This document shows, in pieces, positions 1 through 9,685 of a DNA stretch of 64,000 nucleotides. The first letter of the stretch is position 1; each line of letters starts with the position of its first letter. The stretch is from Pseudovirgaria hyperparasitica (taxonomy: Eukaryota), in the NCBI GenBank assembly GCA_010093815.1, contig ML996566.1; one strand, written 5' to 3'. The position numbers and the translations under genes are program-made. Below the pieces are notes generated by a model. The model did not search any database. It saw nothing but the letters and a program-made list of their open reading frames with translations, and was not told the DNA's origin.

Positions 1-388
1 GCTGCTTCGGTAAGACATCATTCTTTCTCTCCATCCATCCTGAGCCTTTCCCCCAGCACTAGCTTTTTTTTTTTTTTTTTTTTTTTAATTCCCCACGAGA
101 AGCAGAAAAACTAACCCCACCCCCCGTGTGCCCGCACAGGCGCGACTCTGCGATCTAGACACGGTGAAAGTGGACGTCAACCAGGCGTACGATGGCCTGC
201 GCGGCCAGTGGGCGTATGCGAATGGGTTTTTTGAGAGGTGGTGGTGTGCGGAGCAGGGGTTGGGGGAGGAGGCTCGGCGGGCGCCGGTTTCGGAGGATAT
301 GCTTGTTGCGCGGGAGATGATGGCTAGGGAGATGGCTGTGAGGTCGAGGAGGGGGGTGGCGCGGTCGGAGGAGTGGTTGTGGGTTTGA
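1..388 (+). CDS. 3' part of a SUMO-like domain protein (5' end outside window)
   Basis: GCT GCT TCG, then intron 10-139 (GTAAGA...ACTAAC...CAG, phase 0), then exon 140-388 ARLCDLDTVKVDVN...WLWV*. xxLxDxDTVKV matches the post-intron half of the SUMO-like domain in the next gene (FGMEDYDTIKV). Confidence 0.6.
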
Positions 389-1046
389 TGGTTTCTGGAG
401 AGGGGGGTTGGGGTTGGGGATGTGCTGCGCATTGGTATGGAGTAGGGTTGGGTATGGGGGTTTGGGATAGGATTAAGGGGGTATGGATGAGGAACAGGGT
501 GGGTGTTGGGACATGGGTTCGTCGTAGCCTGACGTTTTGGGTTTATTCGTAGGCGGTTCATGGCTGTGAAATGCTAAATGACACAGAGCATGTCCTACGT
601 GATGCGCAATGTTGGTTGTGGTTTGTGAAATTTGCCAGTGGGATCCTCGGTCAACGTCGATGAGGATGGCTATGGACTGCCGGGTGAGTTGAGCATAAGG
701 AGTTATAATTCAAGTGGTTTGTAGTGTGAGTCGGCAAGAGTAGTGATTCAAGTTGACGCTGTTCAAGCACTGTTGCGAGGCAAAACAGACGTTTCTGGAC
801 ACCGATTTGAAAAGGGATATAGCTTTCACTTGATAACTAAGTTGAACAGCACGGTCATGCTTTCATCATAGCCCAACACTAGACATGCCATGTTACTTTT
901 CTTGAACAGTACTGTTGTAGTCTTTCACCATCTGAGAGGAACTATATATAACAGGCACCGCCCATAGCAATCACAGTTCTTACACCTTCCACTACACACC
1001 ACCTACCACTACACACCACATACCACTTGACCTCTAACAATTCATC

Positions 1047-1718
1047 ATGGCTGAGCCAAAAGCAATCTCGATCGCGGTCAGCGGCCCCCACAACGAGATC
1101 GTCACCTGGAACAACATCCCTTTCCAGAAGATCCTCCAGAGATTCTGCGCCGAGCAAAACAAGACCTTCTCCGAACTGAGCTTCGAACTCGACGGCAAAA
1201 CAATCCATGGCCACGAGACACCTGCAGACGTAAGTTTAACCTCCATGACACTGATCCCGCGAGGAGACTTTTGGTGACCAATATATTATCTGAGTAGTTC
1301 GGCATGGAAGACTATGACACCATAAAAGTGCTTCCACACCTCGACATGGAAATCGAAACGTGCGAACAAGCCAAGCCCGAACCACTCGATGGTATCGCAG
1401 ACGACGCCCAGCCCGAACCGGTCAAGAAACCATCTCCGTATGCAAAGCTATATGTTGTAACCGACACGCTTGAGGCCCAGGAGACTGTACTTGAGATGCG
1501 TCTTACAGACAGTGCGAGACTGCTTTACGACGAGATGTATGCTGCCGAAGGGTATGAACCTACGCAATGGATCTATTACCTGGGAAATCAAATGCTGGAT
1601 GGGAGCCGCACGCTGGCCAGCGTAAGTATCCACCATTCAGATATGGAAAAGGGTCCTGCTGACATGGTCTTAGTATGGAGTTACCAATGGCTCTACTATT
1701 ATGGCTGAGCCCCAATAG
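1047..1718 (+). CDS. Small tandem SUMO-like/ubiquitin-like domain protein (2 domains, no C-terminal GG)
   Basis: Exons 1047-1229, 1298-1621, 1674-1718; introns GTAAGT...TAG. Domain 1 FQKILQRFCAEQNK..LSFELDGKTIHGHETPAD|FGMEDYDTIKV resembles SUMO (FxFDGxRI..xTPxxLxMEDxDxI). Domain 2 YLGNQMLDGSRTLAS|YGVTNGSTI resembles ubiquitin ([21 protein letters not shown]). Confidence 0.8.
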
Positions 1719-2007
1719 ATAGATGATGGATTGGAACGACCGGGTGTGGTCGTGGCATGGGCCTGTTTCTCATCATCATTGCTGTAGACAGTACTTATCT
1801 TTGAATTAGACATTTGGTCAAAGCTGCCATCTCTTGATTGATTCACTTTGTACTGTCCCGCCCAGTGCTTCACTTGCGCAAGTTCACCACACACCCCCTC
1901 TCTTACCAGACCACTTCAAATCTCGCAAGTCGTTCGTCCAAACCTTCCATCTCTCCCTCTCCCTTCCCACTCCACAAAAACGCCTCGACCCACGACGACT
2001 CAAAGCC

Positions 2008-2749
2008 ATGGACCAACCAGCCAAATCGATAGAAATCATGCTCTACGACAACGTGAGCGAGTTCCGCATCGTAACATGGCCAACCATGCGCTTCGACCAA
2101 ATCTTTGCCTCTTACTGCGAAGACTGGAAGAAGCCTTTCGACGAGTTCTGCTTCCTGCTCGGCGGTGAAACCCTAGACGGCTGCGAGACTCCGGCCGCCG
2201 TGAGTCCTGCATAGTCAGATTTCCATGTCAAGAAACTGACGAATGTATGCGCAGATCGGCTTCACGAACCGTGACCTAGAAATCGTGGTGAATGTCTACC
2301 AGCAGCCGCACTACGACCCCAAGACCGGTCCTCTCGCCAGGAAGAGCCTTGACGTTGGCAATTCGCTATCCGGGGCGGGATCGCAGGCACCCAGAGCCCT
2401 GAGCAAGTGTTCCATGAAGGAGAACATCATAGTCTCAATCGAGGATCCGTTCACGGGGACGAGACACTGGTTTCAGATCTGTCCCGCCAAGCACTTCCAG
2501 AGTCTGTTTCGAGAGTATGGTGCTTTCATAAAACGAGCTACGTCCACGTTTGATCTCCGGTTCAAGGGCCGCATTCTTGGTCGGAACGACATGCCTACTA
2601 ATGTTAGTAGATTGGTTGAGTAAGGTCGTTGACACTAATGTGCTAACAATTCGCAGATTGGTCTTGTTGCTAATAGCAACCTCATGTGCACGCCCACGAT
2701 GGTGGACGTAGACTGGGCTAAGGGTGACTGTGACGGCAAAGTGATATAG
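2008..2749 (+). CDS. Second small tandem SUMO-like domain protein (paralogue, 2 domains, no C-terminal GG)
   Basis: Exons 2008-2199, 2255-2602, 2657-2749; introns GTGAGT..CTGAC..CAG and GTTAGT..GCTAAC..CAG. FDQIFASYCEDWKK..FCFLLGGETLDGCETPAA|IGF and FQSLFREYG..FDLRFKGRILGRNDMPTN|IGL are both SUMO-fold-like. Confidence 0.75.
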
Positions 2750-3184: not shown

Positions 3185-6100
3185 TCAATACGCCCCTTCT
3201 CTCTTCTCCCACTTCGTCAACGGCGCATTTTCCACCTTTCCAAACCCAGTCTGTATCACAGCCTGCGGCACCAACTCCACCTTCTCGACCTTGGCGCCAT
3301 CAGCCTCCAACGCCCAAAGCGACAGTCCAACCCAGTTCGTACCATGATAGTCCAGAATGCCCTCTGGCACAGGGAAGCTCCTCTGAGGTCCGACATTGTG
3401 CACATACTTGCCAAACTGCCAGCCGTTGACAAACAGCTGCACGCGATACGCAGACTCGGTTTCGTTGGTGAAGACAAACGACAAGGGGATGTCGTAGCCA
3501 TCTGGCATGTCTAGGTCAAAGGATGTGGAGAAGAATCCTACGCCGGCGGCAGAAATGCCTGTAGTGGGACCTTCACTGGTCTCCCAATCATCTGCAGGTG
3601 GTGCAGGGAGGTGGTATCCCTGACGTTCGACGAAAAGTGCGCCTTCATTGAGTGGACCACGGGCACGGTCAACGTAGTCTTCGCCTCCAAGATTACCAGT
3701 AATCTTCCATGTTACATCTGACTTATCATGACCAGATAGTGTATAGTCTAAGATGCCACGAGGGGTCTTCATTTCGTCCTCGCCAACAACGTAGTTCTCA
3801 TCGTATCCCATGTGGTCGATGACGACTGTCAGTACATAGTCTTGTCCTGAGCTAAGGTTGGGTAGAGTGTTTGTGCTTGTATAATTTGTGGTCACATCAT
3901 TGCCTTCCCAGGAGCCAACGAACTTGTCACCGAGCCAAATTGAGTGTCCGTATGCGGAGCCACCCTGTGTGTTTATCGTCAAGCTACTTTCTTGGCCATT
4001 TGCTTTGAAGTGGCCACGGAACACGAGACTGCCACTATGAAAGCTGTAGTCTCCAGCGAAAAGACTGGTAGGGGTGAGCTGTTCGTACTTATCATTATAA
4101 GTCTTCTCCAGGTCTGCATCGGGCCACGTCTCATCCGAGTAGTCTGCTTTGATCTCCGGAAGGCTATCAATGTACTTCCACTCCACAGCTCCAAGGTCTG
4201 GAATGCTTATGGTCGGCTTCTTGAACTCAGCGGTGGCAGTGACAACACCTGCATCATCTTGCTTGAAGTCGAGTGACTCTCCGTTGAATTGGAGATCTGT
4301 CAGCCCTTGAGGTGCACCGCCTATAATCTCAATGGGCGTTGTAACGTTCAGATCTCCGATCAGACTGAGTGTAGTTCCATCCGTGACTGCGGAACGGATG
4401 AGATATCCGGCTTTTACAATTAGAGAACCCTGGCCATAAGAAGCTGGTGTGGCAGGTACCCAGTAATTGTACGCCTCGTTACGATCTACCATTGTTTAGC
4501 ATGGGACTCTTATGGAATGGTAGAGAATGCGGACCTAAGAGGTATACATAGAGTCCTGATGGTGTCTTTACGACCTTCCGCTCACTTGAGGTAGCCCAAT
4601 TAAGGACGGTGTATCCTGTCTTTTGTGCGATGGCTACACCTGATCCCTCGATAGTCTCAGCGGAGCCGTACCCTTCGCTAGTATCTTCAATAGCAAGCTC
4701 GTGTTGCTCATTGGGGCCTCCATATACCACAAGAACAGTCTTTTCGTTGTACTTCTTCCATGTGTACACCTCGGCTGACGAATACACGATGTTGAAATCT
4801 CCGACTGAGTAATCGCTCACGTGGACTTTAGCGTCTCTACCGTTCAGAGACAGACTATTGTTCAATTGAGGAATAGTGATGTTACCATATGATGCAGTGG
4901 ACACGTGAAGCTTATAGCTGGTCGAATCGAGCGAGTTATACTTTGTGTGTCTACTGCATTATTAGAAACAGACAACATCACAGACACAAAAACACGTACC
5001 TTGTGAAATAGAACTTGGTGGTCTCCGTCGTCGCGGGGAAAACAATGATATCGGGAGAAGTTGTCCAGCTTGTGGAGCCGTTGATCCTATCTGCTACAAG
5101 GTATGCCGGAGATGAGTGCAGAAACGTGGCTTCGAGCTTGGCCTCGCTATATTTCTCACGGTTAACGAGACGCATCTCATCCACCACAGCACCATAGTCG
5201 TATGAAGTGTATCCACCTGGGTGACCAAGATTACCCCAGTTTGTTCCACCCCATGTCTGAAAACTGTCAGCACCGAGTCGCATCTACAACTTGGTCTCAC
5301 ACATACCATATAGATATTGAAGATGGTGACTCCGTATCCGTAGTTATTCTTGTAGAAGACACGCTCAAACTCTTGATTCAGAAGTGAAAGACACTTGTCG
5401 AAGCCATTTCCACCCCATGGGTCGAAAGCACCACCTTGAAACTGTACAAAGTCAGCCAATGGCTCTAGACGAGGATTGCAAGAAAGAATACCTCGACTAA
5501 TGAGAATGGAGTAGATGGAGCAAGCCGCAAATGTGTGTTCCACCAATCAGAAGGCAACTTGCCGTCCGGCCAGACGGTTGGATTTGCGCAGTCGAATCCG
5601 AGTGGGTAGCCGTCGTGGCCGTAGATGTCAATATCAGCTTCAGTGGTAGGAGTGATGTAGCCAGCTGGGTAAGCTTCGTTGCTGATGAAAGGAACCACGA
5701 TCCCTGCTTTTCGGTACTGGTCCTTGACTTGGTCCCAGTAGTTGAAGTTGGGAAACGGAAATCCATCAATGAAGGACTGGTATTCATTTTCGGGTTGTAA
5801 GAGAATGACTGGTCCACCATTGGTGATCTGGGCCTTGGCGACAATTTCACTGATTTTTTGAACGTAGCTGTCCTCGTCAGTGGCAATGTACTGGAACATA
5901 CGACGTGTCCTTACTTGTTTGTTGCCTCCATATACGCCGTGTCGTTGTCTCTCAACACACCTGGCACACGCTGGAGCCAGCCTGGAAAGCCACCACCACT
6001 GACCTCGGCGTTAATGTATGGACCAGGGCGCTATTATCTGGTCAGTGAACATGCTTACTTTGAGATGGCATGATCATACCGCAAGCACATAAATCCCAGC

Positions 6101-8106: not shown

Positions 8107-9685
8107 TCATTCTCTCTTCTTGTTGTTGAACCGAGGGAGAGCAAGCCAGAGGACCAAGATCGTTGCGAGTAGCGCAAGAATGATTGGCTGCAAAACCTGC
8201 ACGCCTCTCGCCTGCGCAATAGCACCTACGGCGAATGGAAATACGCAAGCACCGCAGCCTCCGAAGGCTGCAGCAAATCCGATTGTACTGACATGTAGGT
8301 CCCGTGGTAAAAGCTTCGTCGCCGCCACAACTGCAGCCGGAAACAGCGGTCCCAGAAAGAATCCCTGGAGACTGACGGCGACGGCAGAGACATAGAATTG
8401 CGGTACGAGCCAAAACAACAACTCTAGACCAAGAGTGATGGGAATATACACCAGCATTGCGGTGTGCTCGCCTATCAATGGCGTAACGAACCCTAACACG
8501 ACACGGCCAACGGTGACGCCAAGCCAGAATCCTGTTGCTACCATTCCACTGGCAAAGGCTGTACCTTGTCGCTGGTTGAGCATGAATGTGACAATCCATC
8601 CACCAAGCGCAACTTCGATACCGACGTAGATGAGCAGGAAAAGGGAGATCAGCCATGAAACGCGGGCAGCAGGCATCTTCAGAAGTGCTTGCTTCAAGCG
8701 GCTGTTGCCCTGGCTTGATGTTCGAGGATTCTCGGCGCGAAACTGCTCAGCACTGGCATTCCAGAATGCGGAGAGAGAAGTGGTAAGCTCGATGACTGCC
8801 AGACTGATCTATAGCAAGTCAATATGTCATTAAGTTGAGGCAAATTCGGAGCTGCATACCATCACATAATAGAATGCATACCACGGAAGCTTCCCCTTCG
8901 TTATCATACTCGTCGCGATCAGGGGAGAGATTGTTGCTCCAAGACCATAGAAGCCATGCAGAAGACCGAGAACCTCATTAGCCCTTGCCATGTTTCCCAC
9001 CCAGGCATTCCACGCAGCATCCTCGAGACCATTGCCAAACCCAGCGAGGATAAACACAACGACCAGGACGGGATATGGCGGATGTACAGCAATGATTACA
9101 TACGCGATCAGGTGAGACATTGGTCCGAGAAAAGCTACGCCTCGTTGACCAAAAGTGAGGTGGATCCAGTTGTTCGAGAGAGCGGAGGCTACATAGCCGA
9201 TGAATGGCGAGAGAAAGATTAACGATACGACAGTGTAGCTGAGATCATAGTATGCCTCCAACTAGGAAATAGGTTAGTGCTATACTGTATTCGACTTTCG
9301 GGGAGTCTCACGTATGGTATGAGAGCCTGGAATAGTCATCAGTAACTCTGCAGTCCCAAACTAAGTCGCAGCTTACCCCATATGCCGCATCATTGGCCCC
9401 CATTAGCAGAAATGCAAAAAAGGTCGCGAAAGTTCTCAGAACATTCACTCGAGAGGAATTCCATCTCTGTAATCTGACGGACGCTGTTGTTGGTGATGGA
9501 AGCAGGTCATTGGGATCTTTGGAGGATCCAAGTACTCGTCCAGGAGAGCCCGTATCTATAGGCTGGACACTCTGTGGTGACGACGACTTGTCGGTATTGC
9601 TTATGTGATGCTGAGCAACCGGCAATTGATCAAGCTCAACGACAGCTGTGGTGGACCCGCCATTATGACGGGTTTGAATCGCCAT
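8107..9685 (-). CDS. MFS transporter (fucose permease/Bsc6-like)
   Basis: Multiple hydrophobic helices; GANDAAYG, GFGNGLEDAAWN, LHGFYGLGA, YVGIEVALGGW motifs; intron-separated ORF pieces. Confidence 0.88.

Follow-up and report, generated by a model that had tools for sequence, protein, structure and literature searches.

A tandem array of small SUMO-like genes without the diGly motif in the fungus Pseudovirgaria hyperparasitica, and the replaced groove strand of their N-terminal domains

An exposed diGly motif is required for the activation of ubiquitin-like (UBL) proteins by E1 and for their conjugation (PMC6680281). In the RENi proteins (Rad60, Esc2 and NIP45/NFATC2IP), a polar and charged low-complexity region at the N-terminus is accompanied by two SUMO-like domains (SLDs) that lack this motif. 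The second of these (SD2) is easily detected as SUMO-like, while the first (SD1) is divergent (PMC549199). The grass DSUL/GSUL2 locus (maize DiSUMO-like and its neighbors) contains tandem, diversifying SUMO-like paralogs, present both as single-UBL genes and as head-to-tail concatemers (PMC6680281). A similar arrangement is found at one end of a 64,000-nucleotide stretch of contig ML996566.1 (GenBank assembly GCA_010093815.1; the window) of Pseudovirgaria hyperparasitica, a Dothideomycete of the order Acrospermales that is a hyperparasite, living as a parasite of rust fungi. Positions 1-2749 of the window hold three neighboring genes on the + strand, referred to here as A, B and C, which encode five UBL domains, none of them followed by Gly-Gly. 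On balance, we lean toward the view that they represent a lineage-restricted set of SUMO-derived, non-conjugatable UBL binding modules, in which the groove of the N-terminal domains (N-domains) would have been rebuilt.

The three genes have canonical introns. Splice models were joined by script from GT..AG introns and compared with the deposited proteins. The models of genes B and C are the exact translations of the deposited proteins P0001 (183 residues) and P0002 (210 residues), respectively, both of which are annotated as hypothetical proteins of P. hyperparasitica. For gene A, the last three codons of an upstream exon (1-9, AAS) and the last exon (140-388, with the stop codon at 386-388) are joined across a 130-nt intron (10-139, GTAAGA..CAG, with CTAAC at 111), and their translation equals the C-terminus of the deposited P0003 (160 residues). 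The rest of this gene lies to the left of the window. The last exon of gene A encodes the final UBL strand (ARLCDLDTVKV) and a 68-residue tail.

In gene B, exon 1 (1047-1229) encodes most of the SUMO-like domain B1. It is followed by intron 1 (1230-1297, 68 nt, GTAAGT..TAG) and by exon 2 (1298-1621), with the end of B1 (FGMEDYDTIKV), an acidic and Pro-rich linker, and most of the ubiquitin-like domain B2. Intron 2 (1622-1673, 52 nt, GTAAGT..TAG, with CTGAC at 1659) precedes exon 3 (1674-1718), which carries the end of B2 (YGVTNGSTI) and the terminal MAEPQ. Gene C has the same organization. Exon 1 (2008-2199) encodes most of the SUMO-like domain C1, and exon 2 (2255-2602) encodes the end of C1 (IGF..VVNVYQQP), a disordered linker and most of the domain C2. 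Exon 3 (2657-2749) completes C2 with its last strand and adds a 17-residue tail ending in DGKVI. The two introns of this gene are located at 2200-2254 (55 nt, GTGAGT..CAG, with CTGAC at 2236) and 2603-2656 (54 nt, GTTAGT..CAG, with CTAAC at 2643). All five introns of the array are of the GT..AG type with a CTRAY branch-like site, range from 52 to 130 nt and are in phase 0. They interrupt all five domains at one shared alignment column, just before a hydrophobic-Gly turn, with the junctions AAS|ARL, PAD|FGM, LAS|YGV, PAA|IGF and PTN|IGL.

The domain count across A, B and C is thus 1+2+2. The tail of gene A is Trp/Arg-rich and helical, and it has no UBL signal, while the two domains in B and in C are separated by a disordered linker. 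The original prediction, made from the DNA letters, had described three consecutive same-strand genes with five domains, and the splice models agree with it, with its peptides, lengths and termini all found in place. Its description of an array of two-domain UBL genes holds for B and C but not for gene A, which has one domain (A1) and the non-UBL tail. Judging from their N-termini (MFSPHKQ, MAEPKAI and MDQPAKS), the three products are small proteins of the cytosolic type, with no obvious signal peptide.

The domains are recognized by profile methods. With the gathering cut-offs of Pfam (23.8 bits for Rad60-SLD, PF11976, and 25.4 bits for ubiquitin, PF00240), the Rad60-SLD model matches P0001 (40.7 bits, residues 19-73) and P0002 (26.6 bits). 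The ubiquitin model matches P0001 (35.2 bits), its best stretch (124-179) corresponding to domain B2, and it has no match in P0002 or P0003. No Pfam family is matched in P0003. Whole-length proteins are needed for this detection, because single exon pieces score below the cut-off (20.3 and 14.0 bits for Rad60-SLD) and three other pieces give nothing. A separate profile of the SUMO domain was built from a single-domain SUMO-like seed, with 200 domains taken at random from 558 domains in 146 proteins; the proteins of this locus and a related protein, P0024 (see below), were excluded. The hhalign scores against this profile, over 71-75 columns, are 41.3 for A1, 73.6 for B1, 34.9 for B2, 53.4 for C1 and 42.0 for C2. 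The maxima for shuffled controls (40 per domain) are 11.6-16.8, and therefore the resemblance of all five domains is more than chance. On the other hand, the two linkers and the tail of gene A score 6.1-12.3 (12.3 for the tail), inside the shuffle range.

The predicted structures are in agreement with these assignments. The AlphaFold2 (AF2) model of P0002, calculated with a 30-row alignment of two-domain matches, contains two β-grasp domains, with a mean predicted local distance difference test (pLDDT) score of 79.7. Strands and helices cover residues 8-78 and 122-193, the linker (81-107) is disordered, and the pLDDT is 92-97 over residues 121-190. A Foldseek search with this model finds linear di-ubiquitin, ISG15, FAT10 and the tandem UBL domains of OASL, with E values of 1e-10 to 1e-8. 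For gene A, the alignment-free model of P0003 in the ESM Atlas has a predicted template modeling (pTM) score of 0.60, and the clusters matched by its residues 11-98 are those of SUMO, ubiquitin and YukD (residues 11-94 against a SUMO3-like cluster, with a TM score of 0.82 by row). A feature search of the ESM Atlas with P0002 returns Rad60-SLD/ubiquitin clusters, the best at 0.91 with 175 shared features. The β-grasp, SUMO-like nature that had been proposed for these domains is therefore borne out by Pfam, by hhalign, by the models and by the fold searches.

The name of the Pfam domain raises the question of whether the exons belong to one long RENi orthologue that was wrongly split, as two SUMO-like domains without Gly-Gly are a hallmark of this family (PMC549199). 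This explanation is extremely unlikely. Each gene has its own in-frame stop codon, non-coding gaps of 658 and 289 nt separate the three genes, and the deposited models are separate as well. The SUMO-like domain in these proteins is the N-terminal one, opposite to the order described for RENi proteins (PMC549199). Moreover, the best structural match is SUMO. By VIA-align, C2 (residues 117-198) is matched with SUMO1 (Z 13.6, rms distance 1.1 Å for 77 residues) and C1 with an Smt3 fusion (Z 13.2, 1.6 Å for 76 residues), and just under SUMO are ubiquitin, Hub1, NFATC2IP (Z 11.7) and the second SLD of Rad60 (Z 11.1), although differences of about 2 in Z for a model driven by an alignment do not separate the SUMO, Rad60 and NFATC2IP families.

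There is no Gly-Gly after any of the five domains, as had been predicted, and no Gly at the tail position either. Gene B ends in MAEPQ and gene C in DGKVI. The tail of C1, VNVYQQP, is aligned with VIEVYQEP of SUMO1, with Pro-His in place of TGG. The stop codon of gene B is located only five residues past the aligned start of the last strand of B2. Some UBL proteins deviate from Gly-Gly, and the SUMO-like tail of C1 would be compatible with a protein that continues to act as a covalent modifier after processing at a site other than the canonical one. Such a modifier is scarcely to be expected here, given the lack of even a single Gly at the tail position in all five domains and the early end of B2.

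The second difference from SUMO is in the groove of the N-domains. In an alignment with diSUMO-2, the β2 strand of SUMO2/3 that pairs with the SUMO-interacting motif (SIM), QFKIKR, is replaced by EIVTWN in B1, RIVTWP in C1 and RFVAFN in P0024-d1, the first domain of P0024, with a rebuilt pattern of (E/R)(I/F)V(T/A)(W/F)(N/P). Each of the two lysines of this strand is Lys or Arg in 18 of 25 SUMO-like rows from outside the locus, and these positions are Val and Trp/Phe in the N-domains. A basic residue on the helix, Arg in SUMO2 and Lys or Arg in 21 of 27 outside rows, is Glu in B1, Asp in C1 and Glu in P0024-d1. Alanine mutants of SUMO2/3 in QFI and in IKR are described as losing SIM-dependent binders such as RNF4, PIAS1-4, SLX4 and others, while binding to the groove mutants is retained by UBC9, SAE1/UBA2 and several SENPs (PMC12077520). 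The loss of the SIM-pairing strand therefore counts against simple SUMO mimicry, and canonical SIM mimicry by the N-domains appears unlikely from their sequences.

Another reading is that these proteins are SUMO mimics or decoys that engage the canonical machinery (the backside of Ubc9, E1, Ulp proteases, or SIM proteins and SUMO-targeted ubiquitin ligases) in the manner of the SLDs of Rad60, Esc2 and NFATC2IP, and would tune or block sumoylation. The acidic residue in the F-x-L-D-G segment of SUMO, which matters for binding to the backside of Ubc9, is kept in B1, together with the signature ETPA..GMED..D.I.V, and B1 is recognizably SUMO2/3-like in sequence (see below). Stand-alone SLDs are reported to bind Ubc9 (PMC7849368, PMC11065178). 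As UBC9, SAE1/UBA2 and SENPs bind to the groove mutants of SUMO, the loss of the groove is also compatible with Ubc9, E1 or protease contacts (PMC12077520). However, none of the three N-domains retains the SIM-pairing strand, the position of the acidic residue is Gly in C1, Lys in C2 and Gly in B2, and the neighboring genes include no gene of the SUMO pathway. We consider mimicry of this type unlikely, and regard binding modules with a rebuilt groove as the better description.

The domains are not all of the same kind. Against the sequences in the Protein Data Bank (PDB), B1 matches SUMO2/3 (32.5 bits, E ~7e-7), C1 has a weak match to SUMO1 (E 0.03), A1 has a faint match (E 0.35), and B2 (aligned part RTLASYGVTNGSTI) matches ubiquitin repeats. 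A quick maximum-likelihood tree was calculated for the seven local domains, including the two of P0024, and 70 random outside domains, one per protein. B1, C1 and P0024-d1 form a clade (SH-aLRT 95), and B2 is placed with ubiquitin repeats on a long branch (SH-aLRT 97). A1, C2 and the second domain of P0024 (P0024-d2) are unplaced on long branches, with 55 of the 74 inner branches unresolved. Gene B thus reads as a combination of a SUMO-like and a ubiquitin-like domain. The SUMO-like identity originally assigned to the domains is to be corrected for B2, which is ubiquitin-like by Pfam, PDB sequences and the tree. The intron in B2 is nevertheless at the same position as in the other four domains, and B2 could derive from either kind of domain.

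The high divergence between the genes, already apparent in the original prediction, is supported by the comparisons. Genes B and C are 25% identical overall, their N-domains B1 and C1 are 38% identical (E 1e-11), and the remaining domain pairs are 12-23% identical. Residues specific to the family (IVTW, YCE and ETPA) are common to B1, C1 and P0024, and the second domains have no family-specific surface in common.

Such divergence (12-38% between domains) could also be expected if the genes were functionless relics, recent tandem copies of a SUMO-like gene that drift neutrally and whose frames have merely not closed yet. In line with this, there is one specific relative only among the best 150 of 233 matches (see below), and Pfam is silent on gene A and on the exon-2 pieces with B2 and C2 when these are scanned alone. 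Neutral drift to this extent should break reading frames and splice sites, however, and no such damage is seen in the three frames or the five introns. In addition, the β-grasp core pattern is kept in all five domains, the GC content at third codon positions (0.61-0.76) is like that of three conserved neighbors (0.54-0.70), and B1, C1 and P0024 have kept the residues that they share. For these genes, a relic status is distinctly unlikely.

Several observations weigh against the interpretation as SUMO-derived binding modules. The argument on the groove is based on three sequences in one alignment. The good AF2 model of P0002 leans on SUMO-like rows of its alignment, the ESM Atlas model of the same protein is weak (pTM 0.40), and the AF2 model of P0001 from the single sequence has a pLDDT of 37 and is unusable. 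The affinity of B2 to ubiquitin in Pfam, in the PDB sequences and in the tree is at odds with a purely SUMO origin. Finally, the branches of A1, B2, C2 and P0024-d2 are very long (3.2-4.1 changes per column), and together with the 12-23% identity they would fit relaxed constraint as well.

The family appears to be lineage-restricted, as had been suspected. A profile of B and C was compared with 1.84 billion representative proteins (E <= 1e-3), and P0024 is the only specific relative among the best 150 of the 233 matches. The other listed matches are mostly generic, with giant poly-SUMO-like proteins (whose scores are summed over 8-16 repeats), SUMO and polyubiquitin. P0024 has 204 residues and two domains, with no Gly-Gly, and it misses the Rad60-SLD cut-off of Pfam (21.0 bits). 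By per-domain scoring, it is the best outside match of C1 (46.4 bits) among the matches listed. For B1, P0024 has 39.4 bits, amid generic SUMO-like matches of 32-42 bits. Its N-domain and C1 share 36% identity (E 4e-16), roughly the distance that separates B1 from C1.

Word-index searches with exon 2 of gene B, exon 2 of gene C and the tail of gene A found only the proteins from which these were taken (1 of 2, 1 of 9 and 1 of 92 candidates, respectively). A metagenome scan with an alignment of the three proteins gave 294 pattern matches and no confirmed one. There are no further copies in the other 61 kb of the window by a six-frame hidden Markov model search of 1823 open reading frames, where the best match outside the locus has an E value of 0.17.

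Small di-SUMO-like proteins without diGly are not unique to this locus. Among the matches listed there are 34 two-domain proteins of <=260 residues, and 13 of them have no Gly-Gly near either domain end, comprising three of this family and 10 others. The giant proteins P0005, P0007 and P0013 are the top matches of the B and C profile by summed score. These and others have 1057-2704 residues and 9-14 SUMO-like domains, with no Gly-Gly near the domain ends.

With these observations, a possible history and function of the array can be outlined. A SUMO-like ancestor would have undergone duplication, both of the domain and of the gene in tandem, followed by fast divergence, as at the grass DSUL/GSUL2 locus. 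With no C-terminal Gly-Gly, activation by E1 and conjugation would be precluded, leaving non-covalent binding, by which B and C could function as two-headed adaptors or competitors. The ligand to be expected for the N-domains is a partner motif distinct from the canonical SIM with its acidic flank, since the SIM strand is rebuilt and the basic residue of the helix is acidic in all three. Contacts that do not depend on the groove (with Ubc9, E1 or Ulp-type proteases) are conceivable, chiefly for B1, which keeps the F-x-L-D-G acid. The earlier interpretation is retained in that the family is probably lineage-restricted, non-conjugatable and SUMO-derived, but its suggestion of SUMO mimicry is disfavored, for canonical SIMs, by the replacement of QFKIKR. 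A bolder extension, for which we hold out little hope, is that the locus is an independent fungal hotspot of SUMO-like genes, and that its products are adaptors with a charge-inverted groove reading a new class of peptide motif, which might rewire or interfere with sumoylation-dependent signaling in the fungus itself or, if the proteins were delivered, in its fungal host.

The usual view of fungi is that they have one SUMO and a RENi protein. The array indicates that tandem duplication and the joining of domains can give rise to diGly-less UBL paralogs outside plants as well. The replacement of the SIM strand in common among three diverged N-domains also suggests a concrete hypothesis, open to laboratory tests, of a SUMO fold adapted to another ligand. 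For the present, the tiny size of the family limits the significance of the array, and automatic annotation already calls these proteins ubiquitin-like.

The array contains several other sequence features. A TATA-like element, TATATATAA, is located at 944-952 on the + strand, about 95 nt upstream of the ATG of gene B, and is a consensus match only. A 17-nt tandem repeat (CACCTTCCACTACACAC / CACCTACCACTACACAC) is present at 983-1016, between this element and the ATG. A 14-nt string is found both at the start codon of gene B (1044-1057) and in its last codons (1698-1711), as ATCATGGCTGAGCC and ATTATGGCTGAGCC (13 of 14 positions identical). The resulting echo of MAEPK in MAEPQ could be coincidental, or could be left over from a junction between head-to-tail repeats. 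There are 23 families of short direct repeats in 3.2 kb.

The intron of gene A contains a run of about 22 uninterrupted T residues at ~65-86. A G-rich run with imperfect repeats of the GGGTTGGGG type extends over the coding end of gene A and its 3' flank (257-297, 351-372 and 400-465). The strand opposite gene A has a proline-rich open frame of 162 residues (85-573), which is taken to be a by-product of base composition. The segments 170-186 and 2702-2718 are identical at 13 of 17 nucleotides and are located after the last strands of A1 (VDVNQAYDG) and C2 (VDVDWAKGDCDG). Their resemblance is possibly due to chance, since the two segments are shifted by about four residues against each other in the domain alignment.

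The genes next to the array are unrelated to it. A glycoside hydrolase family 35 (GH35) β-galactosidase with several exons (3185-6010, - strand), with matches to BetaGal_ABD2, BetaGal_dom3 and Glyco_hydro_35, is convergent on gene C. It is followed by a major facilitator superfamily (MFS) transporter fragment (8107-8808, - strand) and by Rpr2, ZPR1, arrestin and pentatricopeptide repeat genes. Repeat-induced point mutation was considered as the source of the divergence and was rejected, with a TpA/ApT ratio of 0.70 compared to 0.68 for the window. A link to transposons, by way of papers that mention Rad60-SLD/PF11976, was found to be irrelevant to this locus.

The array can be compared with four described systems. 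The tandem arrangement of two β-grasp domains in a protein of about 150-210 residues is shared with ISG15, FAT10 and linear di-ubiquitin, the top Foldseek matches. These are of the ubiquitin type, are found in vertebrates and end in Gly-Gly for conjugation, and their identity to the P0002 model is only 9-12%. The fold and the sequence signature are shared with SUMO and Smt3, B1 being matched to SUMO2/3 by sequence, and C1 to Smt3 and C2 to SUMO1 by structure. In contrast to SUMO, the proteins of this locus lack Gly-Gly and the flexible N-terminal tail, the SIM strand is replaced, and B and C have two domains.

The resemblance of B and C to RENi proteins is in their two SUMO-like domains without Gly-Gly, detected with the same Pfam model (Rad60-SLD). 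However, B and C have no N-terminal region, as B1 and C1 begin near residues 5 and 6, respectively, and the order of conservation is reversed, with the N-domain being the more SUMO-like one (hhalign scores of 73.6 for B1 against 34.9 for B2, and 53.4 for C1 against 42.0 for C2). For these two reasons, B and C are not assigned to RENi. There are no Rad60, Esc2 or NIP45 chains among the 60 listed of 430 PDB sequence matches, and the best match beside poly-ubiquitin is SUMO2/3.

A search of the literature at the level of titles and abstracts found no fungal counterpart in print, with the supplementary tables of comparative genomics papers outside its scope. The statement that no fungal equivalent is described therefore stands for the literature searched, but a close analogue has been described in plants. 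The closest described analogue, by its organization, is the grass DSUL/GSUL2 locus. Maize DSUL is reportedly functional, according to work cited in the paper on that locus. The grass array includes diGly-less concatemers (PMC6680281), and the fungal one has its 1+2+2 domains with no Gly-Gly at all. The quick domain tree, which leaves 55 of its 74 inner branches unresolved, does not group the fungal locus with any one outside group. The two loci belong to different kingdoms and are presumably independent in origin, and the fungal domains are distinguished from the grass locus by the lack of Gly-Gly throughout and by the rebuilt SIM strand.

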